DNA of 54,169 nucleotides, counting the filler, from Basidiobolus ranarum (taxonomy: Eukaryota): NCBI GenBank assembly GCA_040143965.1. It is 2 parts of 2 records of this genome, joined end to end, with 100 filler letters (N's around TTAATTAATTAA, not from the genome) between each part and the next. Parts side by side here need not be neighbours in the genome. Positions count along the whole stretch, not along the records: positions 27,197 to 54,169 come from JASJQH010007002.1; 1 more part is not named here. One strand, given 5' to 3'. A program made the translations under genes and the position numbers. Below are positions 1,594 through 54,169 of the stretch, one piece after another. The notes below the pieces were generated by a model. It saw only the letters and a program-made list of their open reading frames with translations, did not search any database and was not told where the DNA came from. The first letter of the stretch is position 1, and the number at the start of each line of letters is the position of its first letter.

Positions 1594-2324
1594 CTATATT
1601 TTTAGGCTAGGCTTCCAAGTCCAAGAAAGGTGTACTTTTGTGAAGTAACAGCGAACCGTAAATCACCAGATTCGGGGGGTTTTTTTTACCAGCAAGTGCA
1701 AAATTTGATTTTCAAGTTCTGATTGATGTTTCATTTAACTAGAAAACATACAAGAAATCAAATAACATGAAAAAAACATTTGCCCAGTTTGTTGCAGTAT
1801 TAGCTCAGAACATTGTTTCTTCAGCAGTGAGCAGGATCGCGAGTGCTAAATCTAAATTTATACTTGTTCATCTTGATAGTCATTGCCCAATTATATTCGT
1901 AACTGAGATTTCGATAGAACCAATCTTCTGTATCTCTGGATTTTATAAATACGTATTCCGTTTTAGTACTGTTTGTTAAGGCAATTGTTTTAGTGAGTGG
2001 TTCCTAACTAATACTTAGGGTTAGCAAGGCATTAGGTAGGCATTTGGTACTAGTGATAAGAATCGACTCTGGGCGTAGATTGAAATCATATCAAAATTAC
2101 GGTGAAACATTTCTCTATAAAAGGATATTGATCATTGATAGAAAAATCCCGATAAGAGGGATGTCGCTTTCTACATGCACAAATAAAGGTTTGTTCATAC
2201 TACTTTGAATATATCTGATATCAAGGACGCGGATTTCACGCTACAGAGAGGTCAAGATTGAAGTATTTATAAGAGGCCTCATTCGTGACGGAAATCTCAA
2301 TTTCATTCATTTAATCAATTAGAA

Positions 2325-3650
2325 ATGCGATACAATAGTCCACTCGCACAGGTGCTTCTTGTAGGTCTTATATGCTTCTGTTGTCCTGGAATGTTCAACG
2401 TCATCAACGGTATGGGTGCTGGAGGCCAGATAGACAACAACACTGCTAAGAATGGAAATGTTGCTCTTTATGCTTGCTTCGCAGTATTCGGCTACCTTGG
2501 GGGTGGTTTCTACAATGTTCTCGGTGGTCGTCTGTGTATGTTGATTGGTGGCCTTGCCTATGCTCTGTACTCTGGTTCTCTTCTCAACTACAACGTACAT
2601 CATAATGCTGCTTTTGTTATTGGAGCTAGTGCTATCCTTGGTGTAGGTGCTGGTATACTCTGGACCACTCAAGGAGTGATCATGATGTCGTATCCTGCTG
2701 AAGATCAGAAAGGTCGCTGTGTTGGTCTGTTCTGGATCATCTTCAATCTTGGTGGGGTCATGGGAGCCTTCATCCCATTCGGCCTCAACTTCCATTCTGA
2801 CTCGGGGGTTGTGAGTAACTCCACCTACTTGGCCTTCCTGGTCATCATGGTCATTGGTGCCTTTATAGGTCTTGCCATCCTTCCACCAGAGAAGGTTATC
2901 CGTGATAATGGTACTCGTGTACATGTAGAAAAGTTCAGCAATATCGGGCATGAGATTGTTCAGATCTTGAAGTTGTTCACTAACAAGCACATGCTATTAC
3001 TCACTCCTCTCTGCCTTGCATCTAACTGGTTCTATTCATACCAATTCGGAGATGTGAATGGAGTATTGTTCAACCTTAGAACCAGATCATTCAACAATGC
3101 ATTTTACTGGGGATCTCAGATGTTGGGAGCCTTCTTACTCGGTTCATTCCTTGATAGCTCTCGTTTCGGAAGACGTACCCGAGCTCTCTATGGTCTCGTC
3201 GGAGTTGGGGTTCTTTTCACGGCCACTTGGGCTGGAGGTCTTGCTCTTCAACTTCAATACACTCGTGAAGATCATCCTGTGGATATCGACTTCATCAAAG
3301 GTGGTGGTGACTTCTGGCCCAAGTGGTTGTTGTACATTTGTTACGGTCTCTGTGATGCGGCTCTTCAAACCTATGCCTACTGGCTCATGGGAGCATTATC
3401 TAACGACTCTACGGTTCTTGCCAGATATGCCGGCTACTACAAAGGAGTACAATCAGCTGGAGGAGCGATTGCTTGGAGAATTGATGCTGTCAATACCGCA
3501 TTCCTCACCCAACTAATCATCTCTTGGGCATTATTCACTATCTCTATCCCATTCACCTACCTTGTAGCTAAAAGCGTCAAAGATACGTGCAATGATAGTG
3601 ACAGTGACAGTGGCAGCGACCGTGATATAAAGGCGAAGGAAACTGCTTGA
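2325..3650 (+). CDS. UNC93-like MFS transporter (Ngt1/NOPE1-like), copy 1, intronless
   Basis: 441-aa multi-TM ORF with RYNSPLAQV..G.ICFCCPGMFN, FWIIFNLGG, SNWFYSYQF and YAGYYKGVQSAG motifs. Confidence 0.9.
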   Translation: MRYNSPLAQVLLVGLICFCCPGMFNVINGMGAGGQIDNNTAKNGNVALYACFAVFGYLGGGFYNVLGGRLCMLIGGLAYALYSGSLLNYNVHHNAAFVIGASAILGVGAGILWTTQGVIMMSYPAEDQKGRCVGLFWIIFNLGGVMGAFIPFGLNFHSDSGVVSNSTYLAFLVIMVIGAFIGLAILPPEKVIRDNGTRVHVEKFSNIGHEIVQILKLFTNKHMLLLTPLCLASNWFYSYQFGDVNGVLFNLRTRSFNNAFYWGSQMLGAFLLGSFLDSSRFGRRTRALYGLVGVGVLFTATWAGGLALQLQYTREDHPVDIDFIKGGGDFWPKWLLYICYGLCDAALQTYAYWLMGALSNDSTVLARYAGYYKGVQSAGGAIAWRIDAVNTAFLTQLIISWALFTISIPFTYLVAKSVKDTCNDSDSDSGSDRDIKAKETA

Positions 3651-4422
3651 GCTCAAATTTTGAATACTGTATCTTTATCCTCAGACATAACTACATTCGT
3701 ACTTTACTGTGAATATCAACCCATTATATCGCTCAGAATTACATCAAACATTAATGAATGAAGCAGAGAATTGCTTTTAAATTTAAATACATCGTGCTAT
3801 AGAAGTTCTAAATAAACATCATTTTCACATAACTAAATACTATTATGTAACTAATTGATCCAAAACTATATTTGAACTATACTGAGACTTATGATCTTTG
3901 ATATATGTTTAACTAACTTGAATTTCTTTTGCCTGCATTATACATACACTCTCTATGTTGCTCCATCTACATGAATTTGATTTATTTACTATATAGAGTA
4001 CACTTATATACAACCGTGCACTATAATGCCCAAATTGCGCTCAGGTCATGACGAGTTTCCCATATTAATACAATAAGTTTACCGAGGATATTGGGATTCA
4101 ATATTCTACCTATTTGTAAACCCAAGTGACCATTGCTTCGCAAGAAAACCATTAATATGTTATATCTTTTGATCTAACAAAATTATTACAAGTTCAGTAC
4201 CCTACCAAATCACGCCAATCAAGTATGAACGTTTACATAAAACAATCAATAAGAATTTTTTTTTGAGATTTGGCAACTAAAGGAAGCTAAGTGATATTCG
4301 GTAATAAAATCTATTCGAAGTTGAATGAACTAATGGCTACACTGTAAAAAAGAATGTGATATATTGTCTTAATTACAATTTTCTAGTGATTATTGCCCAG
4401 AATTATCTTCCTATATCCAGAA

Positions 4423-4788
4423 TTGTGACGCAGTAGTCTGCTCACACTGGTGTTTCTTGTAGGTATTATATACTTCTGCTGCACTAGGGTGTTCAACATC
4501 ATCATCGGTGGCTAAATAGACAACAACACTGTCAAGAACAGGAATGTTGCTCTCTATGCTTACTTCGCTGTATTCAATTATTTCGGAGGTGGTTTCAACA
4601 ATGTTCTCGGTGGACGTCTGCATCTGTTGTTTGGATTCACCAGAATGCTACCGTTGTTATTGGAGCTGGCGCTATACTCGGTGTCGATGTTGATATACTC
4701 TGGGCCACTCAAGGGGTGATCATGATGATGTATCTTACGAAAGATCAGAAAAGTTGCTGTGTTGATCTGCTCTGAATCATTTTCAATC
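4423..4788 (+). pseudogene. Degraded 5' fragment of the UNC93-like transporter
   Basis: Aligns by eye to the first ~430 nt of the neighbouring copies (e.g. atagacaacaacactg, acaatgttctcggtgg, aagatcagaaa). The ATG is lost and there are deletions, frameshifts and stops. Confidence 0.85.
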
Positions 4789-5363
4789 GAGATGTTATGG
4801 GAATTTCGTCCTGTGCTATACAATGATTTATGTTCATCAACTTTTTTGCTTATTAAACGTTATAATGTTACCAACTACCAGTAGTAGATTCGTACATTAG
4901 ACCAGGGACAAAAATGATAGCCCTGGTCGTGCTTAAGATGTAACCTAAAAGGTAAGAAAAGTATCACCAATTATATAATATTTATCAAAATGCAAGAATT
5001 ATTAACCCCAGCAATGATATACGTATTAGAGTTGATTATAAGTATATATAAGGATAATCAAAATATTCTCAGTCTAGACACATTGTTCAAATTACTTTCA
5101 TAACTGTCGATCCATAATTTTACCAAATATAATATCGCCAATCTATGGTTCCACAAACTAGTATATCAACATGCCACATATTCAACTCCATTTCCCTTGA
5201 AAATTTATACTATGAGAGTGCTCAACGTCATCTTAGCCTTTACCATAGTTTATTTGTTAACCATGGAATGTCATGAAATACTACGCTATAGTATCTTGGT
5301 ATTCATCGATCATTCGTTTCCCGAGATTTAGCCCTAAAATTCATGCACTAGTAGAAGTATCCA

Positions 5364-6665
5364 ATGAGATATAGTAGTCCGCTCACACAGGTGCTTCTTG
5401 TAGGTCTTATATGCTTCTGTTGTCCTGGAATGTTCAACGTCATCAACGGTATGGGTGCTGGAGGCCAGATAGACAACAACACTGCTAAGAATGGAAATGT
5501 TGCTCTTTATGCTTGCTTCGCAGTATTCGGCTACCTTGGGGGTGGTTTCTACAATGTTCTCGGTGGTCGTCTGTGTATGTTGATTGGTGGCCTTGCCTAT
5601 GCTCTGTACTCTGGTTCTCTTCTCAACTACAACGTACATCATAATGCTGCTTTTGTTATTGGAGCTAGTGCTATCCTCGGTGTAGGTGCTGGTATACTCT
5701 GGACCACTCAAGGAGTGATCATGATGTCGTATCCTGCTGAAGATCAGAAAGGTCGCTGTGTTGGTCTGTTCTGGATCATCTTCAATCTTGGTGGGGTCAT
5801 GGGAGCCTTCATCCCATTCGGCCTCAACTTCCATTCTGACTCGGGGGTTGTGAGTAACTCCACCTACTTGGCCTTCCTGGTCATCATGGTCATTGGTGCC
5901 TTTATAGGTCTTGCCATCCTTCCACCAGAGAAGGTTATCCGTGATAATGGTACTCGTGTGCATGTGGAAAAGTTCAGCAACATCGGTCATGAAATCGTTC
6001 AGATCTTGAAGTTGTTCACTAACAAGCACATGCTATTACTCACTCCTCTCTGCCTTGCATCTAACTGGTTCTATTCATACCAATTCGGAGATGTGAATGG
6101 AGTATTGTTCAACCTTAGAACCAGATCATTCAACAATGCATTTTACTGGGGATCTCAGATGTTGGGAGCCTTCTTACTCGGTTCATTCCTTGATAGCTCT
6201 CGTTTCGGAAGACGTACCCGAGCTCTCTATGGTCTCGTCGGAGTTGGGGTTCTTTTCACGGCCACTTGGGCTGGAGGTCTTGCTCTTCAACTTCAATACA
6301 CTCGTGAAGATCATCCTGTGGATATCGACTTCATCAAAGGTGGTGGTGACTTCTGGCCCAAGTGGTTGTTGTACATTTGTTACGGTCTCTGTGATGCGGC
6401 TCTTCAAACCTATGCCTACTGGCTCATGGGAGCATTATCTAACGACTCTACGGTTCTTGCCAGATATGCCGGCTACTACAAAGGAGTACAATCAGCTGGA
6501 GGAGCGATTGCTTGGAGAATTGATGCTGTCAATACCGCATTCCTCACCCAACTAATCATCTCTTGGGTATTATTCACTATTTCTATTCCATTCACATACT
6601 TTGTAGCCCGGGACGTCAAAGAGACATGTGTTGATGCTGAAACCAAAATAGAAGAAGCTACTTAA
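5364..6665 (+). CDS. UNC93-like MFS transporter, copy 2, intronless
   Basis: 433-aa ORF nearly identical to 2325-3650 except at the termini. Confidence 0.9.
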   Translation: MRYSSPLTQVLLVGLICFCCPGMFNVINGMGAGGQIDNNTAKNGNVALYACFAVFGYLGGGFYNVLGGRLCMLIGGLAYALYSGSLLNYNVHHNAAFVIGASAILGVGAGILWTTQGVIMMSYPAEDQKGRCVGLFWIIFNLGGVMGAFIPFGLNFHSDSGVVSNSTYLAFLVIMVIGAFIGLAILPPEKVIRDNGTRVHVEKFSNIGHEIVQILKLFTNKHMLLLTPLCLASNWFYSYQFGDVNGVLFNLRTRSFNNAFYWGSQMLGAFLLGSFLDSSRFGRRTRALYGLVGVGVLFTATWAGGLALQLQYTREDHPVDIDFIKGGGDFWPKWLLYICYGLCDAALQTYAYWLMGALSNDSTVLARYAGYYKGVQSAGGAIAWRIDAVNTAFLTQLIISWVLFTISIPFTYFVARDVKETCVDAETKIEEAT

Positions 6666-7088
6666 ATCAAAAGTCATTGAATGATAAACTACCTCATTTA
6701 TTGTGAATATTCTACTCGAAATGAATACCGAAAAATCGAAAATTTTTGATGAATTACCAAGCTATTTTTACGTTTATTTATTTTTTATTCAATCCAAGCT
6801 GATTGTTTATCATTATCACATCTTCCTCATATGGTATTAATGAGTATTTATTGATTTGGACGTCTAATACAGTTTATTTATATTACCCCAAATAATTGAT
6901 TGATTCATCATGGGTAATAATAATGTTAAATATATGAAGGATACTTTGGGTGTGCTTCGAAAAGCATGAGATTTTATTGTAATTATGATATGCTAAGATT
7001 CACTTGAAATTTAAGTAGTAAGTGGGAGGAACAATAAATATACATGGAATTGATATGAAAAATTTCGGATATATGAGGGGAATTTCCT

Positions 7089-8393
7089 TTAAACAGAATC
7101 AATCTGTTTCTCATTGTTCTCCACGTTATTGGTTTCTTTGATATCCTTGGCAATTAGGTATGTGAATGGAAGAGCAACCGTGAATAATGCCCATGATATA
7201 ATGAGTTGAGTGAGGAATGGTGAATTAATTGCGTCAATTCTCCAGGCAATGGCACCACCAGCCGATTGGAGACCTTTGTAGAAACCAGCATATCTGGCAA
7301 GAATGGTGGAATCATTGGATAGGGCACCCATGATCCAGTAGGCATAGGTTTGAAGAGCAGCATCGCATACACCGTAACAGACATACAATAACCACTTGGG
7401 CCAGAAGGATGCAGGATCGCTAATGAAGTCAATGTCGGAGGGATGACTTTCACGAGTGTATTGAAGTTGGAGAGCAAGACCTCCACCCCAGGTAGCCGTG
7501 AAAAACACTCCTACAATAGCAAGACCATAGATAGCTCTGGCACGTCTTCCGAATCGAGGATTATCGAGGAAAGCACCCAGTCCATAGGCACCAGCCATTT
7601 GTGAACCCCAGTAGAAAGCATTATTGAAGGATCTGGTACGAAGACTGAACAATACACCATTGACAGCTCCGAATTGGTATGAGTAGAACCAGTTAGATGC
7701 GAGACACATGGGGATCAATAAAAGCATGTTCTTGTCAGTGAAAAGTTTGAGAACCTCTAGAACTTCTTTCCAAATGTTGCTGAACTTCTCAACATGAACG
7801 CGACTACCATCATCACGGACAACCTTCTCTGGTGGAAGTAAGGCTAATCCAACGAAGGCTCCAACAACCATGATAACCAAGAATGCTAAGTAGGTAGAGT
7901 TGCTTACAGCGCCAGATGTGGAATGGAAGTTGAGTCCGAAAGGAATGAAAGCGCCCATGACACCTCCAAGGTTGAAGATGATCCAGAATAGACCAACACA
8001 ACGACCTTTTTGATCTTCAGCGGGATATGCCATCATCACTACACCCTGAGCGGTCCAGAGAATACCAGCACCAATACCAAGGACAGCACTGGCTCCAATG
8101 ACGAAAGCAGCATTCTTGTGCTCATTATAGTTGAGGAGAGAACCAGAGTATAGAGCATAAGAAAGACCTCCAAACAACAAGCATAAACGTCCACCGAGGA
8201 TATTGTAAACACCACCACCAAAATAACCGAATATAGCAAAGCAAGCGTAAAGGGCGACATTTCCGTTCTTGGCAGTATTGTCATCCATCAAACCACCGGC
8301 ACCCATACCATTGATGACATTGAACATACCGGGGCAACAGAAGCAGACAAGGCCTACAAGAAGCACTTGTGCAAGAGGGCTATTGTATCTCAT
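7089..8393 (-). CDS. UNC93-like MFS transporter, copy 3 (older paralog), intronless
   Basis: 434-aa ORF colinear with copies 1 and 2, with many synonymous and conservative changes. Confidence 0.9.
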   Translation of the reverse strand: MRYNSPLAQVLLVGLVCFCCPGMFNVINGMGAGGLMDDNTAKNGNVALYACFAIFGYFGGGVYNILGGRLCLLFGGLSYALYSGSLLNYNEHKNAAFVIGASAVLGIGAGILWTAQGVVMMAYPAEDQKGRCVGLFWIIFNLGGVMGAFIPFGLNFHSTSGAVSNSTYLAFLVIMVVGAFVGLALLPPEKVVRDDGSRVHVEKFSNIWKEVLEVLKLFTDKNMLLLIPMCLASNWFYSYQFGAVNGVLFSLRTRSFNNAFYWGSQMAGAYGLGAFLDNPRFGRRARAIYGLAIVGVFFTATWGGGLALQLQYTRESHPSDIDFISDPASFWPKWLLYVCYGVCDAALQTYAYWIMGALSNDSTILARYAGFYKGLQSAGGAIAWRIDAINSPFLTQLIISWALFTVALPFTYLIAKDIKETNNVENNEKQIDSV

Positions 8394-10096
8394 AATGAAG
8401 GAAAATAAACTATAATCTTTAATTGTGAGATGCAGACCTCTTTTATATGCAACTAACGGTCGAATGTTTTAATAATTAGTTGAAAAAAACGGGACCAATA
8501 TTTTTAGATTTTTAGTCTTTTGGGTTCCATTCAAATAACTTGTGTCACGTATCAACAGAATATCTGTGGATTCCATTTCATTTCCAAGGATTTCATGATT
8601 TTACACCATCCGATTTCTGTATTTAGTTCATACTTATTCTGTTACTTTTTTTGTCACCGTATACGGCACAATCCTCTGTTACACACGTTTCAAGCTTTGG
8701 TACACAAACCTAATCACCTGCACTTATTATCCCTCTAATTATCTCGAAGTTCATTTAGAATTATGGATTCATCGAATTCGGCCCTATTTCTCTTAATTCA
8801 AGATGAATGTCTCAGTTGACAGACTCGGAAGAATAACTGAGTTTCCCAATTTGGTGATTGAAAAAGTGGGGGAGTCATTTTAGGCAAAACTCACACTGTG
8901 GAATGATTGTACCACCTGGAGGTCATCTGATTTGTCTCGATACACTCGTATCAAATATCCATGGTTTATTTCATAGAAATTATCGAATATAGACAATAAG
9001 AGTACATCCAAATTATGGTACACTGACATAGAAAGCTAGGATCACTATTCCGGTGAAACGGTTGGAATGACAGTTCAAGACCGCTGGATTCTACTGGCTG
9101 ACTTTCTACAAATCAACTGGTAAGCAACGGAAATTGCATGTTTACTTGATGTTCGAGAAAGCGTAGGAAAGACTATGGGCGTAGGTATGATTAGTATGAC
9201 TAATGGAAACAATGGGCTAGGCCATGTTGATCTCATTTGTTACTCAATCTTCATGTGCTAACAACCACTTGGGCAGAGCTCTGGCTGATCGTTGGGAAAG
9301 GCCAAACCTATTTGAATGTTTGCAGTAATTCAATCAGGATATTTGTGGCTTTGTGGTTGATGATCGATCTAGTCGTAGTGAACATCTCGACTAGAAATTA
9401 CCGGTATTGTTGTGTTCGTTGGTAAAGTCCGACATTAAATTTGGTGATGTTGATCTATGGTGGAAATGGCCTGTTTATTTGCCATAAAGTAATCGAATCA
9501 AAGACAATCCTAATTCATCCCAGATGGGCATATGACAACACAACAACGTTACTACATGAAGCTGGTGAAGTTTTATTCAACCTTTAATTTAGGTTATTTA
9601 CGTCGGAGTGACCTTCTTTAGATTTGTTTTCGACTCCGTTTCCAATTCTGTACAATTATCTGACTCCTTCGTTAATCATGTGGTTATGGTAAAAGCCAAT
9701 TAGACTCTGTAGACTCTTCATGGACACCATGAAGTTGCTAAATAATGTCGAATATTGCTCTAGTTCGGTTAAATGGAGATTCACGTGAGAAAAGTGGGCT
9801 CTTAGCACTCGAAGTTGAAATCTGCCAGAGTAATCATTGGATTAAGCCACTTCTACACGGTGCAGTGTGATGGATTTCATTTAATCTTAACCACGGTCAC
9901 AGCATTTTTGTGAGAAAACCGGTTCATCGTGCAGCACGAACTATTCTCCATTTTAGGGAATGTACGACTCTGACGAAGCTCTTAATTAGGAAAGCGGTTA
10001 TGGGGTTATGGATGGTGGTAGTTATAGTGATATTGGAGAGGTCACTTTGGTAACTATTCTTCATTTACCACGTTGCGTTTACCCCTCTGCGGTAGG

Positions 10097-10215
10097 ATTG
10101 ATAAAGAGTTGGATGAGGTAGTGACAAGAATTAATAAGGAGTTGGATGAGGTAGTGACAAGAATTAATAAGGAGTTGGATGAGGTAGTGACAAGAATTAA
10201 TAAGGAGTTGGATGA
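10097..10215. repeat. 33-bp tandem repeat, about 3.6 copies
   Basis: Unit aataaggagttggatgaggtagtgacaagaatt repeated directly. Confidence 0.95.
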
Positions 10216-10216
10216 T

Positions 10217-11545
10217 TTATTTAAGTACAATTTCAATGGGATCCTTTCTGGCGAAATACACTTCATGCAATCTCAGAGCATATTTTGAAAATGTTGATCT
10301 AGGTGTACCTACAAAATAGTATCCACGAGAGGCAACTACCGAATCTACCATTGGAATGAGATGCGATGTAAGGGGGATTCCGTCTTCGGGGTTGCGTTCA
10401 TCGAATAGAGAAGACGTCTCATTTCTAAAGTCTGAATATATGAAGGTACATGGATACTCTTGGAATAATGGAAGCAGTAGTTTCTCTTCTCGTGGATTGT
10501 TTAGATCTGTGGCTAGATACAGTATTGGGGAATGAAAGGATGCATAGGCTGATCTGGTCAGGCATGACTCCAACGAGGGCGGGCTCCTAGGATCGAATAG
10601 AGTGGCGGGTTCTGAACCTTGTATATTTGCAGGGACTATCCTGGTAGCAAGCATCTCTTTGATTTCATCAAGAATGATCTTTAAATTCTTTGATAAATCC
10701 TCGGCAAAGTAAAAGTCGGAAGCACGCAAGTGAATCCCATAATAATTCTCGGAACCTCCCAACTTTTTGGTTAGTTTTTTGGAAATTTCGTGTACCACCG
10801 GTGAATCATATACCAACTTCCGACGTAATTGTTCAAAGTAAGCAGTATTTTCCGGGATATCTGTTTGAATTCGCCAGCTCGAAAATAATGAGCCAAAGAA
10901 AATGAGCTTGTTGGGGATTTTCTTCAATTCATCTAACAAAATCACCCGATTGAACTGATTTAAGGCGAATGTACTATTGAGACGGTCAACGATGGTATAG
11001 TTATACAAAGTGGTATCCTTGATGTAATGTATCTCTTCATCGATTTTAATCCCATGCATATCCAACTCGTTGCTCGCAAACTCTGCTTGTTGCTTGAAGT
11101 TTATCGTATTTCGAAACTTTTCTAGGTTAAAAAAGTATTTCCACGGCATTTTAGTCCAAGTTTCATAACCGGTACACTCTAGTGGTAAATCTTTTAATTT
11201 ATAATCCCCGCAGTGACCCAAAGTCTTTTTGCTTTTACTCGTAAGCCAGTTATGTAAGCTGTTAAACGAACGCCACGGAATGGGTGGGCCCAAAAGAACT
11301 GGAGGAAGTAAAACTGTTCTATTGAGTAATTTAGCCAAGAATAAAGCATTTTCTAATTCTATTCGTTGATTGTGAAAGCCACTGTGAGGTAGATAAGTGA
11401 TGAACTTCTCTGTAGGCGTAAAATTGGTATACGCATCTGAAGTATTTTCTTGACGCTCCCATAAAGATGAAAATAGGTAGCAAGCGCAAAAAAACCATAT
11501 GAGAAGGAGAAAAGCCATTATTCCTTGGCGGTAATACTTCACCAT
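10217..11545 (-). CDS. O-fucosyltransferase-like glycosyltransferase (type II membrane protein), intronless
   Basis: N-terminal TM segment; TYLPHSGFHNQRIELENA..LA..LNRT..LPP, GIHLRASD, LYLATD and FVGTPRSTFS motifs. The probable ATG (MVKYY) is at 11545. Confidence 0.85.
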   Translation of the reverse strand: MVKYYRQGIMAFLLLIWFFCACYLFSSLWERQENTSDAYTNFTPTEKFITYLPHSGFHNQRIELENALFLAKLLNRTVLLPPVLLGPPIPWRSFNSLHNWLTSKSKKTLGHCGDYKLKDLPLECTGYETWTKMPWKYFFNLEKFRNTINFKQQAEFASNELDMHGIKIDEEIHYIKDTTLYNYTIVDRLNSTFALNQFNRVILLDELKKIPNKLIFFGSLFSSWRIQTDIPENTAYFEQLRRKLVYDSPVVHEISKKLTKKLGGSENYYGIHLRASDFYFAEDLSKNLKIILDEIKEMLATRIVPANIQGSEPATLFDPRSPPSLESCLTRSAYASFHSPILYLATDLNNPREEKLLLPLFQEYPCTFIYSDFRNETSSLFDERNPEDGIPLTSHLIPMVDSVVASRGYYFVGTPRSTFSKYALRLHEVYFARKDPIEIVLK

Positions 11546-12195
11546 GGTCTCGAAAATTTGAAGTGAAAATATGAGTGAAATCAAGAGGTAGAACTAAGTA
11601 ATATATTGTTTTGGTGTGTTTTCCCATTTCTCAGGAGAACTCTTCATCTTTAAGGGGCTCGCAGCTTTTCGGAGCTCGAGGATAATTACTCTCAGTTAAC
11701 AGGTAGAAATAGAAAAGGGATTTACGAGGATTGCTCATAGCACTTCGGATAATTTTAATCCTGTGATTCGAATTTTCTCAACTTAAACTACCGGTTAATT
11801 ATCCACATCCTTGCAACCTGCGACCTATCGATTAGTATATATCCGTCATGAGGATGCATAATTCTTGCGATGATACATACTCTAACCAAGCTAAGAAATA
11901 TTCATCACACGTTACTTCTCTACTTGCCTGCTTTTTTCTGCTTTTTTAGCTCCAGTAAGTTCCCATGCATAATGGCTGAGTTCATGACGACATATAGTAA
12001 TATAGAATATATCATTCAAGAATAATCAAATGCGGAAATTGTCTGGCTGATGACATTCACGAACTACTTAACTATACGAGATTTGATAGGACTAAAACCA
12101 ATTTTACTTGGATTTTCAAAGTGGTTTTGGTGTTGCTCCTCAAAATTCATATTTACTCAGCGAGCACCACTTATCATTTCTTTTGTTAACTCGTA

Positions 12196-27096: not shown

Positions 27097-27196
27097 NNNN
27101 NNNNNNNNNNNNNNNNNNNNNNNNNNNNNNNNNNNNNNNNTTAATTAATTAANNNNNNNNNNNNNNNNNNNNNNNNNNNNNNNNNNNNNNNNNNNN
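27097..27196. other. Assembly gap / artificial contig-join spacer
   Basis: 44 N + TTAATTAATTAA (stop codons in all six frames) + 44 N. Confidence 0.97.
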
Positions 27197-27423
27197 CTAA
27201 TGTGTAGAATATGTTAAGGAAGGCCCTAGAAACATGTGTGCAAAGTTTGGGGCTTCTAGCACAAGTTTGAAAAATCTATATATTTGAGAACTTCTAAGTT
27301 GGTAAAAATATTCCAAGTAAATTCCGATTGAGAATAATTGATAATATCTTAGTTCATTATAAGATAACTAAGTACTAAGCTATATATGACTATATAGGTG
27401 TTTAGGCAATGCTAATTTCAACA
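27197..27423 (-). mobile_element. Dispersed repeat fragment ending in ...TTTCAACA
   Basis: Reverse complement of about 48706-48910. Confidence 0.8.
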
Positions 27424-27846
27424 GTATTCTGCTTCTATCATTGAGAGTGCTATGGTAGGTTGTTTCTTTGAATTCCAAGCAATAGCTCCATTACAGCCAA
27501 GAAATTAGTATCCTATTGTAGATCTCTGAGATATAACATGCAGAGGGTTGGGAAATAGCTCTGATTGAGACATGAATCAAATGGTTCAACTGGCCATTTT
27601 TATACTTTTCATAGCATCAGGAATTGATCAGTGTCAAGTGAATAGATTAGTAATTTTGATAGATAGAGAAATTATTGTAGAAGTAATTTGGGAGTTTGTT
27701 TGAAGAGATTTAGAGAATGAGAAGAAACGTTGGTCTTCACATATTGATTAGAAAGTTGACATTTATAGTTTTGTTAAGACAAAAGCAAACAAGTGCTTTG
27801 ATATCTTAAAAAAGGTCCTTGGTGTTAAAGTATTTTGGGAGTCTGT

Positions 27847-28060
27847 TCTATATTTTAAGGATATATTACATAAGAGCAAGAAAAAGTAGTATTGCATTCC
27901 AATAGAACATGTGTACTGTTAAAGTATCTAGGGAATCTATTGGAGGTGGTTTGGAGAACTAGAGATATTGGTGGTTTTCACTTACTGATTTATTGAGTTG
28001 AAAGTTAATATTTATAGTTTTGTCAAGATGTAAACAACCTAACATGTAGAATGTGTCAAG
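27847..28060 (-). mobile_element. Dispersed repeat, internal fragment
   Basis: Reverse complement of about 48890-49106. More degenerate subrepeats lie at about 27680-27846. Confidence 0.75.
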
Positions 28061-28145
28061 GAAGGTACAATAGGTAATGAAGGAATAGTGAGATTTAGGA
28101 CATTAGTGGAAGAGATTTGAAGAGATAAACATTAAAAGAAACTAT

Positions 28146-28202
28146 TGTTGAAATAAGCATAGCCTAAGCACCTATATAATCATATATAGCTTAGTATTCT
28201 AG
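28146..28202 (+). mobile_element. Dispersed repeat, terminal fragment starting TGTTGAAATAAGCATAGCCTAA
   Basis: Direct match to 48706 onward and inverted match to 27370-27423. Confidence 0.8.
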
Positions 28203-46595: not shown

Positions 46596-48705
46596 ACTTT
46601 CGCTAACCATAATCCCTGAACTGTAATTGGCAACTATGCATATGTAAAGTGATTCTAATAAAGTTGACTCTGTTTACATTCAAATCCATTTCCAAGTCAT
46701 AATCAAGCAGTATTGGTGGTATGTTTACTAAATTGGGCATTAAGTATCCTGCCATGAACCATAGTATTTCGCTAACAATGTACCAAGGTAAGTAATGATC
46801 GTAACTGTACTCATTCGTGAAAACATGGCCTATTCTCCGAATTAACTACTAGCCTGTAGAGATTAAGGAATTCAATCACCCACACATAGGCACTGATAGC
46901 CGAGGGAGGCGATAAAGTAGCGACTTGACATTTACTTGGGTGCTTTTTACAATTGTGATTTGAACATACTAGTTTAGGTGTTACCATAACAATTAATCTG
47001 GAGTTTGATGGGATTTTTGCCAGTCACAATGACTATTACCAAAATCTAGTCCCTTATAGTCGGTAAGTAAAAGTAGGACCAGGGTCATTTGACAGTGAGA
47101 TTTACATTCAGTATCGAGATTCCTCCTACCATGAGAATGCTACTAGGCTTCTTAATAAGTATGTGGTACATCATAGTGAATTTTAACAAACAAGAATTCA
47201 TCCATTGGCGAAACAATAGATGTTGACATTTTTAGCATTTGTGGTAATTTTTAATGATTAATTGAATCCTTTTAACAGTCAATTCCTACTAATGGGTTCC
47301 ATTAAATCGTGCCTAGTTTCTGGCTACTGTTGGTAACCTAGTCACTAATGGTAACCTGAATATTCCATTACTAATTCAAAGTTCTACAATGCGCTCGAAA
47401 CATCGCCTATTTATGTCCTACTTACAGGTTCTCAATTTGCAGTGGCGAAAAGGTGCTCTAAAAGTAGCTTCTTTCGATGAGGCTAGGCGCCATTTATGCC
47501 GTTGCTAAATACCACCATCTGCTGCTTAGGATTCCTTGTGCCACGGTTCTACCAAACAATGTCATAAATTGAATATTTGTCTTAATGTTTTGAGCTCGAC
47601 AAGGCTCAGTGACATCGTTTAATTTAATGACTATACCATACATTAGTAATATCATAAATATAGGATGGAATATGAATGGTTGGTGATCACGGGCACTTGC
47701 AGTAAATGCACAAATGTGTAGAATATCAATCTCATCATGGTGAAAATGAGGATCTTACAACTACGTACAGTAACTTCCTTTGATATCTCTAGATTCTCTA
47801 GCTCTGGAGATAGCTAGCAGAATTGCCTTTCTCCACTAGTATTCATGAAAAGCAGAGTGGCGGATCTTGTGGAGACATAAAAAATGTTATTATAGACTAT
47901 CCTGGAACAGAGAGATAGACCAGCGTATCTCTTTGTTACAAGATGCTCAGACAATATGCATAGAATGAAAATTATTCGAGTATCAAAGGTATTTCTTCCA
48001 TCTAAACATGATTTTAGAAATGCGGAATAAAGGAAAGATAGATGTTGACTAGTTTCATTGCGCAATATGAGATTGCCATCATACCTCAGCACTACCAGAT
48101 GGAGTATTGTAGGTTGAGATACCATTATATGGAACTATGTTATATATTCGCTATGAATATGAGTGAATAAGGTTGGCCAATGATTTTTCTATTATACTGA
48201 GACAACGAAGCTATGCAATTTTTAGAAATACGCTGATAGAAATGTATCCAGGACGTTGGAAGATTATTAGGGAACCCTTGAATATGTACCAAACTGTTAC
48301 ATCTCGCAATATTCATCAAATATACTCCAATTAAGAGTATTTAAAGGATAACAAGCAAATTGTTGAAATATTAGAGTTAAGCATCTAAATGTTCGTATAT
48401 TATACATACGGTGTAGACTTGAATATTCGATCACTACGAAACGAAATATATTTCTTAAGATTTATCGGCTCACAGTGACCTAAATGTCGATGAAAAGATA
48501 TCATATCTGTACAGATGCAATAATGTGCAGCTGATGAAGGTGTGTGCACCATCTCCCTTGCTATTAGTGTAGGATATTGGGACGAAAACATCAAAAATAT
48601 GTATATCACAACTTGGATAGGGTTTTCTTGGGTATCGGGGTAGATTCTAAATAACTTGGACAAACCTTCCTTTTAGTTTCAAACAACATATTTCTATATG
48701 GTACA

Positions 48706-49106
48706 TGTTGAAATAAGCATAGCCTAAACATCTATATAGTCATATATAGCTTATTATTTAGTTATTCCATATTTTCATTAAGATATCATCCACTATTCTC
48801 AATCGGAATTTACTTATAAGTTCTCAGATATATAGAATTTTCAAACCTGTGCTAGAAGCCCCAAACTTTGTACACATGTTCCTGGGACCTTTCTTAACAT
48901 ATTCTACATGTAAGTTTGTTTACATCTTGACAAACTATAAATGTCAACTTTCAACTCAAATATATCAATAAGCGAAAACCACCAATTTCTCTAGTTCTCC
49001 AAGCCACCTCCAACAGGCTCCCAAAATACTTTAACAGTACACATGTTCTATCGGAATGCGATACTACTTTTGATGGCTCTTATGTGATATACCCTTGAAA
49101 TATAGA
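48706..49106 (+). mobile_element. Dispersed repeat copy (about 400 bp) starting TGTTGAAATAAG
   Basis: Matches three fragments within 27197-28202. Confidence 0.8.
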
Positions 49107-50408
49107 TGTACTCTTGATAACTACATGTTCAACTCCATCTCCTAGATTCACTTCTGGATTATTGAAATATATTTGAATACATTACTACTGAATTCCTTTC
49201 ATCTATATGCTGCCTGCTAATTTTTTTCTTATACAAAAGCACTATTGTATCAAGCTAGCAATTTTTATTCCAGTCACTTTCTATTTTGATCTGGATCAAG
49301 TGATCAAGTCAGTAGGTAACAACCTCGAATATTATACATTGTCTCTCCAATAACGAACAAGTACTTCCTTGTATGTAGTTGCTTCCCTGCCTTGAGTATG
49401 GCTTTTTCTGTGCCATAATAAGCATAGTTTTTGAAATCTGTAGCGATTGTTTAGCCATCTCTCTGATGAAGCTATACTATCTAACACCGGAAAATTAAGT
49501 ATGAATGCATGTGAAATTAACAAATCAATCATCTAGAATGGATTGTGTAGCTTGAGACATAGATTTGGCACTATCCAGCGCCATCAACTTTCCTCTATTT
49601 TATTGAGTTAAGGTTGGACAACAACCCTCCGTCTGATGGTCCAGTGGGCCGAACAATCAATATTCCGCTAAATTCCAACATCATCAAATTATGATAATCA
49701 TTGGGTACGAAGTGGTGGCTAAGTCACTCACACGCATATTGGATTAGCCCAATCAGAATTCTAGCTTAGATACTTCCACCATTGGTTGATACAGCATTTA
49801 GCATAAGCGACAACAAGGTCTTGTGAGCGCATTGAAGCAGTTTGTTCAGTATCTCTATTTACATATACAATTAAGCTGATGAAGGCACCTGACAATTCAA
49901 CGTATTGAATTATTAGGTCGTGAATACTACCTCCAACTTGGTCTACTCTATGCTGAAATATAGTACGCATTCATCTCCCCAACGGCTCTACATAAGATGA
50001 TGGGAATTCAACTTGAATATCCAATATAAACCGTGAACCTTCGGATGGGCTAGAACAAGTAGAACCTTTATCCGGGTCAGATTTTCCGAATCAAGCTTGA
50101 AGCCGGTTTACTCTCAGTATAGATAATGTCGATTTATTCAAGTAGCCGCAAATTCAAATAACGAAACAGAGTATATGATACAACGTATGGAATAAGAAGT
50201 CCACGACAGGAATATCTAGAAGGGTTAAGTAACATAGTCGAAAACTTTTGAACTGCAAATTGAGAATGATCGAAACGCTAGAACATGAGGTGACGATTGG
50301 AAGTCGCCTCAAAGGGCATAATACAACTAACTATATGAGTCTAATGACTGGAATCTGATACGCTCTTAAAATAAGCCCATGAATTATCAAATGTGAAGCC
50401 ATACTATG

Positions 50409-51469
50409 TTAACGTACTTCATAAACAGGTGGCAATTCACAGGTAGAATCAATCGCTCTATATGCCGGTGGTGAGAGAGTTACCTCATTGTACTCAAGCG
50501 ATTGTACGACAATGGGAAATCGATGAATTACTGTGTCCAAGATTAATCCTCCTTGAGATATACAAAATTTCACTTCCAATTTATGACAGACTTCGATGTA
50601 ATCCGGTCCACAGTCACTTTTAACGAAGTCTGGCACTTGTACGTTGATTGTCGCTTCCCAGTCATTGACATTTGGAGGCCGTGAATAGTCTTGAACAAGG
50701 TTCGCTAGTTTTTTACTTTGTACTGAAGGTCTGACAAAGCTTGCACTCCTGTAAATAGTGTACTCTCGCATACTCGAATGAATCCGATCCACCTCCAGTA
50801 GCGGGTCTGTTATATAGAAGTGAAATGTAACAGGAAATATTTCTCCAGGTGCGAACGTATTAGCAGGAATTGCAGCTTCGTAATACATCCGTGAAGCCCA
50901 TGTTCCCGATATCATGATATTTGGTGAGTCAGCAATGTCCGAAGTAGAGGGTAGTGGAACTCTATGGATGGTAAGAGGACAAGAAGCCTTTAGTGTACGG
51001 TGGAATCCCGGTTTTTCAAGAACAGCATATAGTTTGTATATAATTTTCCCATGAGAAACTTTAACACTCTCTGGAAGTTTTCCACTCAATGGATACTCGA
51101 AATCATATTGGTGTTGTCCTTTGGGTAGGGTGTATAGTTGATGGGATAGCTCAAGGATGGGCCAAGTTTCATCTATTAATATTTGCTCTTTCCTAGGCAT
51201 ATCTATAGTGAGATTGAAGAAATATTAGTTATTGGTTCCTCTGAAGCACAACCCTTTCCAAGAATATTCATACCACTGGTCATCTTGAGCTTCAATTTTC
51301 CCTTTAATCGTAAAGATATGAATTTAACCTTCGTATCTTTGATTAAGTTAACCAGCACAGCGCCACGCAGCGCACAACCAACAGATTGATCTGCTGAACC
51401 ATGCATGGTGAGTGTATCTTCCTGTAAAACAACTTCAACGCTACTTGACATCTGAGGATTACTGGGCAT
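50409..51469 (-). CDS. Alpha-arrestin (arrestin-N/C domains with PPxY motifs), 2 exons
   Basis: LRGAV.VNL....KVKFISLRLKGK, then LPKGQHQYDFEYPLSGKLPES...GKIIYKL, and C-terminal PPAY and PPVY. Intron at 51203-51273. Confidence 0.88.
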
Positions 51470-53534
51470 GTTGAGTTCTTCAAGATAATAGGAAATGATC
51501 TCTGGTGCTAGAATGGTTAAAAGTAAAGCTACGAGATACGAATCCACAACAAGCTGGTAATCTGAAGTTTTAAGAGGAAAAGAGTACACGAAGTCAAATG
51601 ATAATCCGAAAGAGCACAATCCAATTTATACTCAAAAGCCCCAATCATGGTCACAACCGAGACAGCTTATAAAATTGATTGTAGTGGTAATATCCCTTTC
51701 GTCTGGGAAATCAGACGAGTTTGACCGGAGAAATTTCTAATCTCAATTCATTGCCATGCGTGAACCCGAACCTTTCCAATATCCAAATTTAGTTATTCAT
51801 TGAATTTTACTCTAGCAGATGGCGTCAAAAACTGAAGCTCCCAGTCAAATGCTAGCAGACAATTAAAGAGTTTTCCGGTTTATCAGAGTTATAGTTGACC
51901 AAAAAGAAAGCCACCTATGGAGAGCCTCAAATATTCTGCATTGAAAAGGCTTACTTAGGTGTCACGAGATATCCCTAATCCTCCATAGGCTAGTTCAGGA
52001 TTGGCAGAATGATTCTAACTACTATTTCCTCCGAAAACTGCTTGACCCTAAGCCAAAGCGGTCATTTTAAGGTTCTCAAGCGAGGACAACCAATAGAAAT
52101 GACAGGATATATGGAGTATCTCTAAAATAAGCATCTAGCGGATAGAAGCTGTCATCACACTGCTTGTAAACAATGTAGATGCTACACGAAACTATGACGC
52201 TTCACGTTTGCTCATATTACGAAATGTACAAGACTTGCTTTGTTAGACTGCGATATCCAAGGTAATAGCACTTTCAGGTAATCACAGAGAATAATGTGAT
52301 ATTGATTTTGAATGGGGTTAGGGCAATTAGTGATTTCCCAACACCCCATATCGTCATTAGCCTTCCAGTGTGAAGCCGGTTTTCTTGTCCCTCTTTGAGA
52401 ATCGAAATGGGCATCATTGCGTAAGCGAATGAAATTCCAGTGATGTAAGAGTGAATTTGATCAGTATACAGCTAGTCTGATGCATTCTAGAGCCCAAAAA
52501 TATATATTGAGCATTTAAGCCTGTATACTCATTAAAGGAAGCTATCGACCCAACAACCGGAATATCAAGAAGTGGGCAATCTGTTGCTTAGAGATCAACA
52601 TATCGGAAAAACGCAACCGCTTACGCGAAGATGATTTGATTTGCCCAATATAGCCTGCGATTCTTGGCGACAGCTGTTTATATTTATATCTATCTCCTGG
52701 TCCAAATCATTATTTGCAGATGGATGGATAATCTCTATATCTATTTGCCTGTTTGGCTGGTGATGCGCAATTGGGTGTGAAATCGGTGTTTTGGTTCAAA
52801 CACGCCGCCAAAGACAGCAAATTTTGATGAGATATAGATCTTATACCCTAGGTTCTGATCAATTCGCATCTTTGAATGCCAGAGGATACACCGACCAGAG
52901 TCAGTACGTTAATGTTGACAACAGATAGAACAAGCTTTGCTAAAGTCAATCAGATACTTTTATATTGGTATTTGTGGTACTACCATGAGCATATATATAG
53001 ATTGAAATACAAAGTGTAGAGGACAAGTGATAATTTGCTTGTTTTAATATAGGCCACAATAGTACATCATAAGTCTACATTATAAACGTTGGATATGATG
53101 GTCTGTCTTGAATGGCTCTTACCTACCGCATAGTATGAATGTTAGACAATGTAAACTATGTTGAAGCCTACATATGGATCACCTACGAGTGATAAGTCAG
53201 AATTAAATCAACTGATGGGTTTGTATGCTAAATCGCCAGAGCTTAATAGAATATGTTTGATAGTTTCAGTATCTCCAAGAATACTGCTGCTCTGAGCTAA
53301 TTACTGTGACCATAAGCGATAAGGTCTTGTTCTCTGACTGATACTTTTTTATATATTGGCATTACATCGGCAAACCTTAAGCTTGAATATACATGTGTAT
53401 TACACTCCCAGTGCTGTATTACTTATTTATTATGCAGCTGGTAATTTTGATATGGTCATTGACGTTTACTTTCTTCTGGATAGCGCTGGTTTGCTATGAC
53501 CGATCAGGTAGTTTAGCTTTCCCCTTCTACTTAC

Positions 53535-54169
53535 ATGTCCATTGGACTTGAAACAAAAATCGTTAATCTTAAGAAACACAGATATAAAGAGCTTTTTGCA
53601 AATGATACAGTGATCTTTGACCAATCATAAATTAGAAATACACGATTTATATATAACACAAAAAATCCATCAATTGTCTTTACAGAAAACCGAATTTTTA
53701 GAGAAAGAATCCATGATATTTCAAAAGGGTCTGGAATAGAAAGAAAGAGATAGAAGAAGAAAAAGGTAAACTTTTTAAGGTTTGCTCTGTATATATAGTG
53801 TACGGTTTATTTAATATACATACTATCGTGTTTAGTTGTAGTCAGACGCAAGTATTGTAGTAAACCTAAGCATCACACAAAGAGAAGTAGTCAATGTGAG
53901 CATTTTGAATCAACATCGACTTCTGGTAAGTATAGACATTTTGCGTACATAGAGTAGCCTCTGACAACAGCTCGAATGCGATATATGTGTGTAGTTGGCA
54001 CAAAGCACAACAAAAGTACTGTGTATGAAAAGAACGAAGCAAAAAAACAAAAGACTAGCGCAAAGAGGTACACTGAGCCAGAAGAAAGTAGTCCTGTATG
54101 TTTGAGCTGTCATCAAGAAGGCCATAAGAGCTCAAGATCAAAGGACTGCCCAAATCACAAGATGACTAA
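53535..54169 (+). pseudogene. Partial, probably decayed, spliced zinc-knuckle gene of likely transposon origin; runs off the window edge
   Basis: GT-AG introns at 53766-53835 and 53926-53994 flank in-frame exons encoding RKYCSKPKHHTKRSSQC and CLSCHQEGHKSSRSKDCPNHKMT. The putative upstream exons contain stops, so the 5' boundary is uncertain. Confidence 0.55.

Follow-up and report, generated by a model that had tools for sequence, protein, structure and literature searches.

The last 460 bases of the window, the 54,169-nt stretch of Basidiobolus ranarum DNA analysed here, very likely comprise the 5' end of a Fanzor1-family gene, most likely one that has decayed. Fanzor1 proteins are DNA endonucleases of eukaryotes that derive from TnpB, are guided by an omega RNA and travel in transposons; they are under development as compact eukaryotic genome editors. 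The visible pieces of the putative gene would be a short leader exon, a small exon encoding a first zinc knuckle (knuckle 1) and the start of a main exon containing a Lys/Arg-rich stretch and a second knuckle (knuckle 2), with two short phase-1 GT-AG introns between the three. In intact relatives the main exon runs on into REC, WED/RuvC and the TNB zinc ribbon, parts that here would be expected past the right-hand end of the window. An earlier note on this sequence had proposed the N-terminus of a Fanzor-like protein, a reading that is now supported by N-terminal homology, by the match of a profile of relatives to structures in the PDB, by the predicted fold of one relative (P0020) and by the continuity of a second locus, L002.

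Gene layout at the window end

Scanned in six frames, the 54,169 bases contained exactly two matches to the motif [C/R]-x2-C-x4-H-x7-C, both on the plus strand and in the identical frame modulo 3. Knuckle 1 (RKYCSKPKHHTKRSSQC, 53847-53897, +) has Arg in place of the first Cys, and knuckle 2 (CLSCHQEGHKSSRSKDC, 54099-54149, +) is an intact CX2CX4HX7C in a frame that stays open to the edge, as the earlier note had described. Its remark that the spacing differs from that of the retroviral knuckle also holds, the distance from His to Cys being seven residues rather than four. The features assigned to this end of the window, together with the flanking host gene, are as follows.

50409-51625, minus strand: arrestin gene, the flanking host gene
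53713..53765, plus strand: candidate leader exon (exon 0), tentative, with an ATG at 53713; translated in two frames
53766..53835, plus strand: predicted intron 1, 70 nt, GTAAAC...TTTAG, phase 1, matched in position and phase by an intron of L002
53836..53925, plus strand: exon 1, with the degenerate knuckle 1 (R-x2-C-x4-H-x7-C), ending in phase 1 (G|GTAAGT)
53926..53994, plus strand: predicted intron 2, 69 nt, GTAAGT...CTGAC...TAG, phase 1, with an in-frame TAG inside
53995..54169, plus strand: exon 2, a Lys/Arg-rich stretch followed by knuckle 2, open at the window end

All three window exons can be joined in one frame. The in-frame joining of 53836-53925 to the exon that begins at 53995, across an intron with its acceptor TAG at 53992-53994 and a branch-like CTGAC, had been proposed from the sequence and was confirmed on it. 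Exon 2 completes the split codon (G+TT) and contains no stop up to base 54167 of 54169. Its Lys/Arg-rich stretch (EKNEAKKQKTSAKR, about 54027-54068) lies ahead of knuckle 2, which is followed by PNHKMT, and the window edge falls directly after ...CPNHKMT. In tblastn alignments, exon 1 matched knuckle 1 of P0045 (CKDCNKSGHHTKRSSQL, in which HHTKRSSQ is identical), P0035 and P0025, and the alignment with P0025 had a 22-residue gap across the translation of the 69-nt intron 2. For intron 1 an alternative acceptor at 53841|53842 (TTGTAG|TC) is equally good and leaves the frame unchanged. Both introns are predictions, with a position and phase that are conserved among relatives at only about 30% identity.

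The assignment of 53713..53765 as a leader exon is tentative. The frame that would be spliced on is YFKRVWNRKKEIEEEK (53717-53764 plus G53765, phase 1); it lacks an ATG and is directly preceded by a TGA at 53714-53716. The ATG at 53713 is one base out of the splicing frame and reads MIFQKGLE*, with a stop after eight codons. By tblastn, the leader exon resembled the N-termini of P0029 and P0030 (KAMYERKKQIENEK) weakly (E about 0.8-0.9, not significant alone). The counterpart in L002, MLYKMPSIEARKYLENLVKQKRVKNQGEK, is intact, likewise ends in phase 1 and is followed by a GTAAGA intron.

Elsewhere in the 54-kb window tblastn found no further match to the Fanzor family, and the 53.5-54.2 kb region is not repeated within it. 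Rfam gave no match in 51600-54169, a tRNA scan of the intergenic region was likewise empty, and the CpG profile showed no element boundary.

Relatives and their Fanzor1 identity

The knuckle pattern is not rare. When the window was shuffled 200 times by mononucleotide, 12% of the shuffled versions held the strict motif at least once and 5.5% held two loose motifs; a Pfam search of the two window exons returned no family at E <= 10. It is homology, therefore, that carries the case. Exon 2 and the start of the protein P0001 share 95% identity over 98% of the exon (E = 1.1e-25), and a tblastn match between the window and P0045 spans both knuckles (E 4e-23). Exon 2 also shares 23 of 41 residues (56%) with the N-terminus of P0026 (pairwise E = 6e-12) and is 58% identical to P0010, a protein named 'cytochrome c553' by its source, which is suspected to be a CxxCH artefact. 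The matches are to the N-termini of Mucorales and Umbelopsis proteins in which the same knuckle and basic flank precede a Fanzor1 REC/RuvC/TNB body, and alignments A2 and A3 both show a conserved knuckle column. Judged by sequence, the window's own residues are thus homologous to the N-terminus of proteins that are themselves identified as Fanzor1 below.

As a HMMER query, P0001 retrieved 41 proteins at E <= 1e-3 from a set of 1.84 billion representatives, seven of them at E <= 1e-10. The relatives named by organism are all from Mucorales or Umbelopsis (Mucor flavus, M. lusitanicus, Cokeromyces, Thamnidium, Apophysomyces, Parasitella, Phycomyces, Helicostylum, Rhizopus and Mycotypha among them), with the exception of one contig filed under a bacterial metagenome-assembled genome (MAG). 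The earlier note had placed such knuckle proteins in Mucoromycota-type fungi; all named relatives are Mucoromycota, but the host, Basidiobolus, belongs to Basidiobolomycota.

Eighteen proteins match P0001 via its knuckle region, and in 14 of these the start of REC (LG....TRK) follows directly after the knuckle. P0028 ends at ...NLG, P0036 is without the LG..TRK motif but has a RuvC-I DPGR further on, and P0011 and P0034 are unrelated multi-knuckle proteins. Models of the zf-CCHC type matched P0011 and P0034 (for P0034, PF00098 at 3.2e-8 and PF15288 at 1.2e-6), and P0025 had a weak match to zf-CCHC_6 (PF15288 at 0.0024). At least one strict CX2CX4HX7C was present in 21 of 46 family proteins. 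Tandem knuckles were found in P0013 and P0046 (both Umbelopsis), P0025 (Cokeromyces) and P0035, while P0034 has three; a first knuckle with one changed ligand occurs in P0039 (H to Y) and P0045 (C to L). The full-length relatives P0020, P0026 and P0043 have a single knuckle.

The identity of the relatives was addressed through domains, profiles, motifs and fold. PF07282, the TNB ribbon of TnpB and Fanzor, scored 31.5 bits in P0020, above its cut-off of 26.3, and 23.8 bits in P0026, below it. A profile of 12 members (A1) matched the solved chains of GtFz1 (9cer, 6.3e-9) and SpuFz1 (8gkh, 1.3e-7) in the PDB, the next match having an E of 0.46. P0020 alone matched 8gkh at 1.8e-4, the W-x-RD end motif included. 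P0026 alone had no PDB match at E <= 0.01, and a word-index search with it found no protein besides P0026 itself.

P0020, of 690 residues, has its knuckle at residue 63, LDPGR at 433, TS-x2-CxxC at 620 and WQRD at 655; its catalytic Glu was identified by eye from the context DEFKTSKTC. These motifs are those of the Fanzor/TnpB signature, D ... [TS][TS]-x2-C4 ... RD, as given by Bao and Jurka (PMC3627910). An AlphaFold2 model of P0020 (mean pLDDT 68.5, pTM 0.60) was confident over REC residues 110-400 and of low confidence in the RuvC half, because only two sequences cover that half. With this model, Foldseek returned seven matches at E <= 1e-3, all of them Fanzor1 (SpuFz 5.9e-11, PpFz 2e-9 and GtFz 4.5e-7 among the E values), followed by one at E 0.7. 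In the protein Atlas, P0020 falls in an 86-member Mucoromycota cluster labelled 'Cas12f1-like TNB'. By homology and predicted fold, then, the knuckle-bearing relatives are Fanzor1. The likeness to the solved members (SpuFz1, 8GKH and 9CEU-9CEZ; PpFz1, 9CF0/9CF1; GtFz1, 9CER) lies in profile, fold, TNB ribbon and the D, TS-x2-CxxC and RD motifs of the relatives, whereas the identity of those members to P0020 is only 14-17% and the window itself shows no catalytic parts. The Fanzor1 members with solved structures are described as omega-RNA-guided double-strand DNA endonucleases in PMC11423790 and PMC10530073.

A link between the knuckles and RuvC at the level of DNA was provided by L002, the 2,784-nt contig encoding P0035, which was retrieved by scanning genome contigs with that single protein. 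One frame running from 1012 to the contig end contains both knuckles, then the REC blocks and RuvC-I (SVDPGRR...), and is broken solely by two short stop-bearing inserts, both absent from homologues. The 5' part of the locus is arranged as follows.

Ending at 959: leader exon of L002, intact, phase 1
960-1009: intron 1 of L002, GTAAGA...GTAG
1010-1087: knuckle-1 exon of L002, ending in phase 1
1088-1153: intron 2 of L002, GTAATA...TTTAG, 66 nt, phase 1, followed by the main exon

The two introns of L002 have the same positions and phase as those in the window. The contig is filed under a Sphingobacterium MAG, yet its Fanzor1 gene is fungal and has introns; almost certainly this is eukaryotic DNA that was wrongly binned with a bacterial genome.

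State of the copy and competing explanations

P0001, the nearest copy, is a public protein of 167 residues that reads KQEQPEKGLVKKIVHAYCYQYVCGG...SASPGVYIP past its knuckle. It starts MGYMCVV where the window reads MRYMCVV, and its Met corresponds to the ATG at 53976, inside intron 2; P0001 is thus without the leader and knuckle-1 exons. Knuckle 2 is identical in both, but 5 of 64 aligned residues differ, so P0001 represents another copy or allele, which might be a paralogue, a homeologue or the allele of a different assembly. Directly past the knuckle P0001 jumps to the YCYQ block. Compared with P0043, roughly 100 residues of REC are missing there, and compared with P0020 about 170. P0001 thus keeps the second half of REC without the first, then degenerates and ends before RuvC. 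A Pfam search with P0001 gave DUF3671 only, at E 0.53. A metagenome scan with P0001 had a sole match, L001, which was discarded as a spurious 33-residue pattern match.

The window copy is probably a decayed relic rather than a working gene. This reading is drawn from the leader ATG, which is out of frame with the exon that it should lead, from knuckle 1, which is without its first zinc ligand, and from the internal deletion and truncation of P0001. The upstream stops that the earlier note had taken to indicate decay are real (MIFQKGLE* and the TGA at 53714-53716), and its view of the copy as decayed is borne out by the signs just listed, the relic status itself being probable. Dead Fanzor1 copies are ordinary. 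The CpG observed/expected ratio was 0.63 at 53401-54169 and 0.72 for the whole window, so that the Fanzor fragment is not CpG-depleted and is a poor fit to an old, methylated relic. One reading of the undepleted CpG is that the copy is either young or unmethylated.

A less likely explanation, though one that keeps some weight, is that the fragment opens a Fanzor1 gene which is intact and active and extends past the edge, with translation beginning either at the in-frame ATG at 53976, as a single-knuckle protein, or in an unrecognised upstream exon. Exon 2 is open and knuckle 2 fully conserved, the full-length P0020, P0026 and P0043 manage with one knuckle, and L002 shows that intact tandem-knuckle genes exist; the level of CpG would also suit an active gene. 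Against these points, the leader ATG lies in the wrong frame, knuckle 1 is short of one zinc ligand, and P0001, the sole near-identical copy seen, has an internal deletion and a truncated end.

It is improbable that the locus is instead a domesticated host zinc-knuckle gene, derived from a Fanzor N-terminus and kept, without the nuclease, for nucleic-acid binding. In favour of such a gene, the locus sits among host genes and its CpG is not depleted; P0001, if it is an orthologue in another assembly, retains the knuckle without RuvC, and P0034 has three such knuckles and no Fanzor part. However, the recognisable REC piece of P0001 that then degenerates speaks for decay rather than for a trimmed functional protein, the damage to knuckle 1 and to the start codon fits such a gene poorly, and the 41 relatives include no conserved family of knuckle-only proteins for which a host function is named.

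The earlier note had offered a Helitron protein as its alternative. That the fragment begins a Helitron Rep/helicase, or some other transposase (MULE, hAT etc.) sharing the knuckle, is very improbable, although elements of the Helitron, Mariner, IS4, Sola and MuDr types carry Fanzor1 genes, according to Bao and Jurka 2013 (PMC3627910). No Pfam family of Rep, helicase or transposase type was found in any of the 41 relatives, 14 of the 18 knuckle-region matches lead into the Fanzor REC start, and so does P0001, the closest copy of exon 2, lead into a Fanzor REC; on the absence of those families and this continuation, a Helitron or other transposase was rejected. The reading that both the ORF and its Cys/His pattern arose by chance in AT-rich intergenic DNA, for which the frequency of the strict motif in shuffled windows and the empty Pfam search might be cited, has a negligible probability and is refuted by homology to P0001, P0045 and other relatives (E 1e-25 to 1e-9 against many independent proteins) and by the intron positions and phases conserved with L002.

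The knuckle module and its genomic setting

Fanzor1 N-terminal regions have so far been treated as variable, disordered carriers of nuclear localisation signals (NLS), and C2HC knuckles in general bind single-stranded nucleic acid. By analogy with other Fanzor N-termini, the Lys/Arg-rich stretch ahead of knuckle 2 may act as a nuclear localisation signal. The knuckle or knuckles may form a flexibly tethered small zinc module that, by analogy with C2HC knuckles in general, would add binding of single-stranded nucleic acid. In the P0020 model the knuckle (pLDDT about 70-77) lies between segments below 50. It is possible, and is put forward tentatively, that the knuckle, single or tandem, is a functional accessory zinc module that adds ssRNA or ssDNA binding and defines an undescribed Fanzor1 clade common to Mucoromycota and the distant Basidiobolus. 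If so, the accessory binding could serve omega-RNA loading, or a grip on the displaced strand or the target site.

Comparison with described Fanzor proteins and knuckles gave both likenesses and differences. The Mucoromycota Fanzor1 proteins of Bao and Jurka (ROr-1 to 4, PBl-1 to 3 and MCi-1 to 10; PMC3627910) come from the same host group as the relatives, Fanzor1 in Mucorales having been known since 2013, and belong to one protein family with them, in which the N-terminal halves vary. Their sequences contain a REC motif, T-A-Y-x-N-N-I, similar to that of the relatives (supplement S3, PMC3627910), whereas by eye the knuckle is absent from the 17 Mucoromycota Fanzor1 N-termini in that supplement. 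The strings CPNH, GHKSSRS, GHKSARS and GHRSARS did not occur in 12 of the 14 supplementary files of PMC3627910, and the passages on 'zinc' examined in Bao and Jurka 2013 concern the C-terminal C4 finger (PMC3627910).

The disordered N-terminal NLS regions of Jiang et al. 2023 (PMC10530073) resemble the window in having a Lys/Arg-rich stretch ahead of the folded body, and the low-confidence linkers predicted at the N-terminus of the P0020 model would be in keeping with them; in that paper, 21 of 22 tested Fanzor N-terminal 100-residue pieces drive nuclear import. Unlike those regions, the window has a zinc-knuckle motif embedded in its N-terminal region. The word 'zinc' did not occur in the main text of Jiang et al. 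2023 (PMC10530073) or in Xu et al. 2024 (PMC11423790). With zf-CCHC (PF00098) and zf-CCHC_6 (PF15288) the window knuckles share a small C2HC arrangement, Gly-His after the second Cys and basic neighbours, but the spacing of PF00098 is CX2CX4HX4C as against CX2CX4HX7C in the window, and neither of the two exons had any Pfam match at E <= 10. The knuckle-region profile A3 likewise had no match in the PDB at E <= 10, which implies that no solved chain, Fanzor1 included, has a sequence-detectable knuckle module.

Within the open-access literature searched, no Fanzor with a zinc knuckle or CCHC was found, nor was the motif CX2CX4HX7C or any mention of Fanzor together with Basidiobolus. The N-terminal knuckle module of Fanzor1 is accordingly regarded, provisionally, as undescribed. 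Its conservation across a whole clade, sometimes as a pair, points to an unexamined accessory module for nucleic-acid binding that could affect guide loading, target search or nuclear handling. The window locus, probably a dead copy truncated by the edge, carries little weight alone. That this family of Mucorales type also occurs in Basidiobolus is a further data point on transposon exchange among early-diverging fungal lineages. The REC piece of P0001 is 54% identical over 84 residues to P0043 of Mucor flavus; the 602-residue ORF of a P4 flippase in the window is 99% identical to a Basidiobolus ranarum protein, 91% identical to that of B. meristosporus and about 45-48% identical to those of Mucorales. 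That the REC piece exceeds the host gene in its identity to Mucorales hints at horizontal spread of the element, although 84 residues prove nothing.

Apart from the Fanzor fragment, the window consists of ordinary host DNA, with three UNC-93/MFS genes, two O-fucosyltransferases, the P4 flippase, a GYF protein and the arrestin. The three UNC-93/MFS paralogues occupy 2289-8468, and their cluster looks like a recent local gene amplification.

2289-3650 and 5355-6665: direct UNC-93/MFS copies, with segments 98-100% identical
7089-8468: inverted UNC-93/MFS copy, 79% over 1262 nt

Short repeated segments at 27203-28198 and 48706-49106, 88-92% alike, inverted and 21 kb apart, look MITE-like; gaps of N at 27097-27140 and 27153-27196 adjoin this pair. 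At the second repeat site the CpG observed/expected ratio falls to 0.34 (48601-49400), the lowest value in the profile, which covered 47-54 kb. A 33-nt tandem repeat at 10094-10215, detected as three overlapping 56-nt register copies that are 95-100% alike, lies just outside an O-fucosyltransferase ORF (10217-11593, minus strand).
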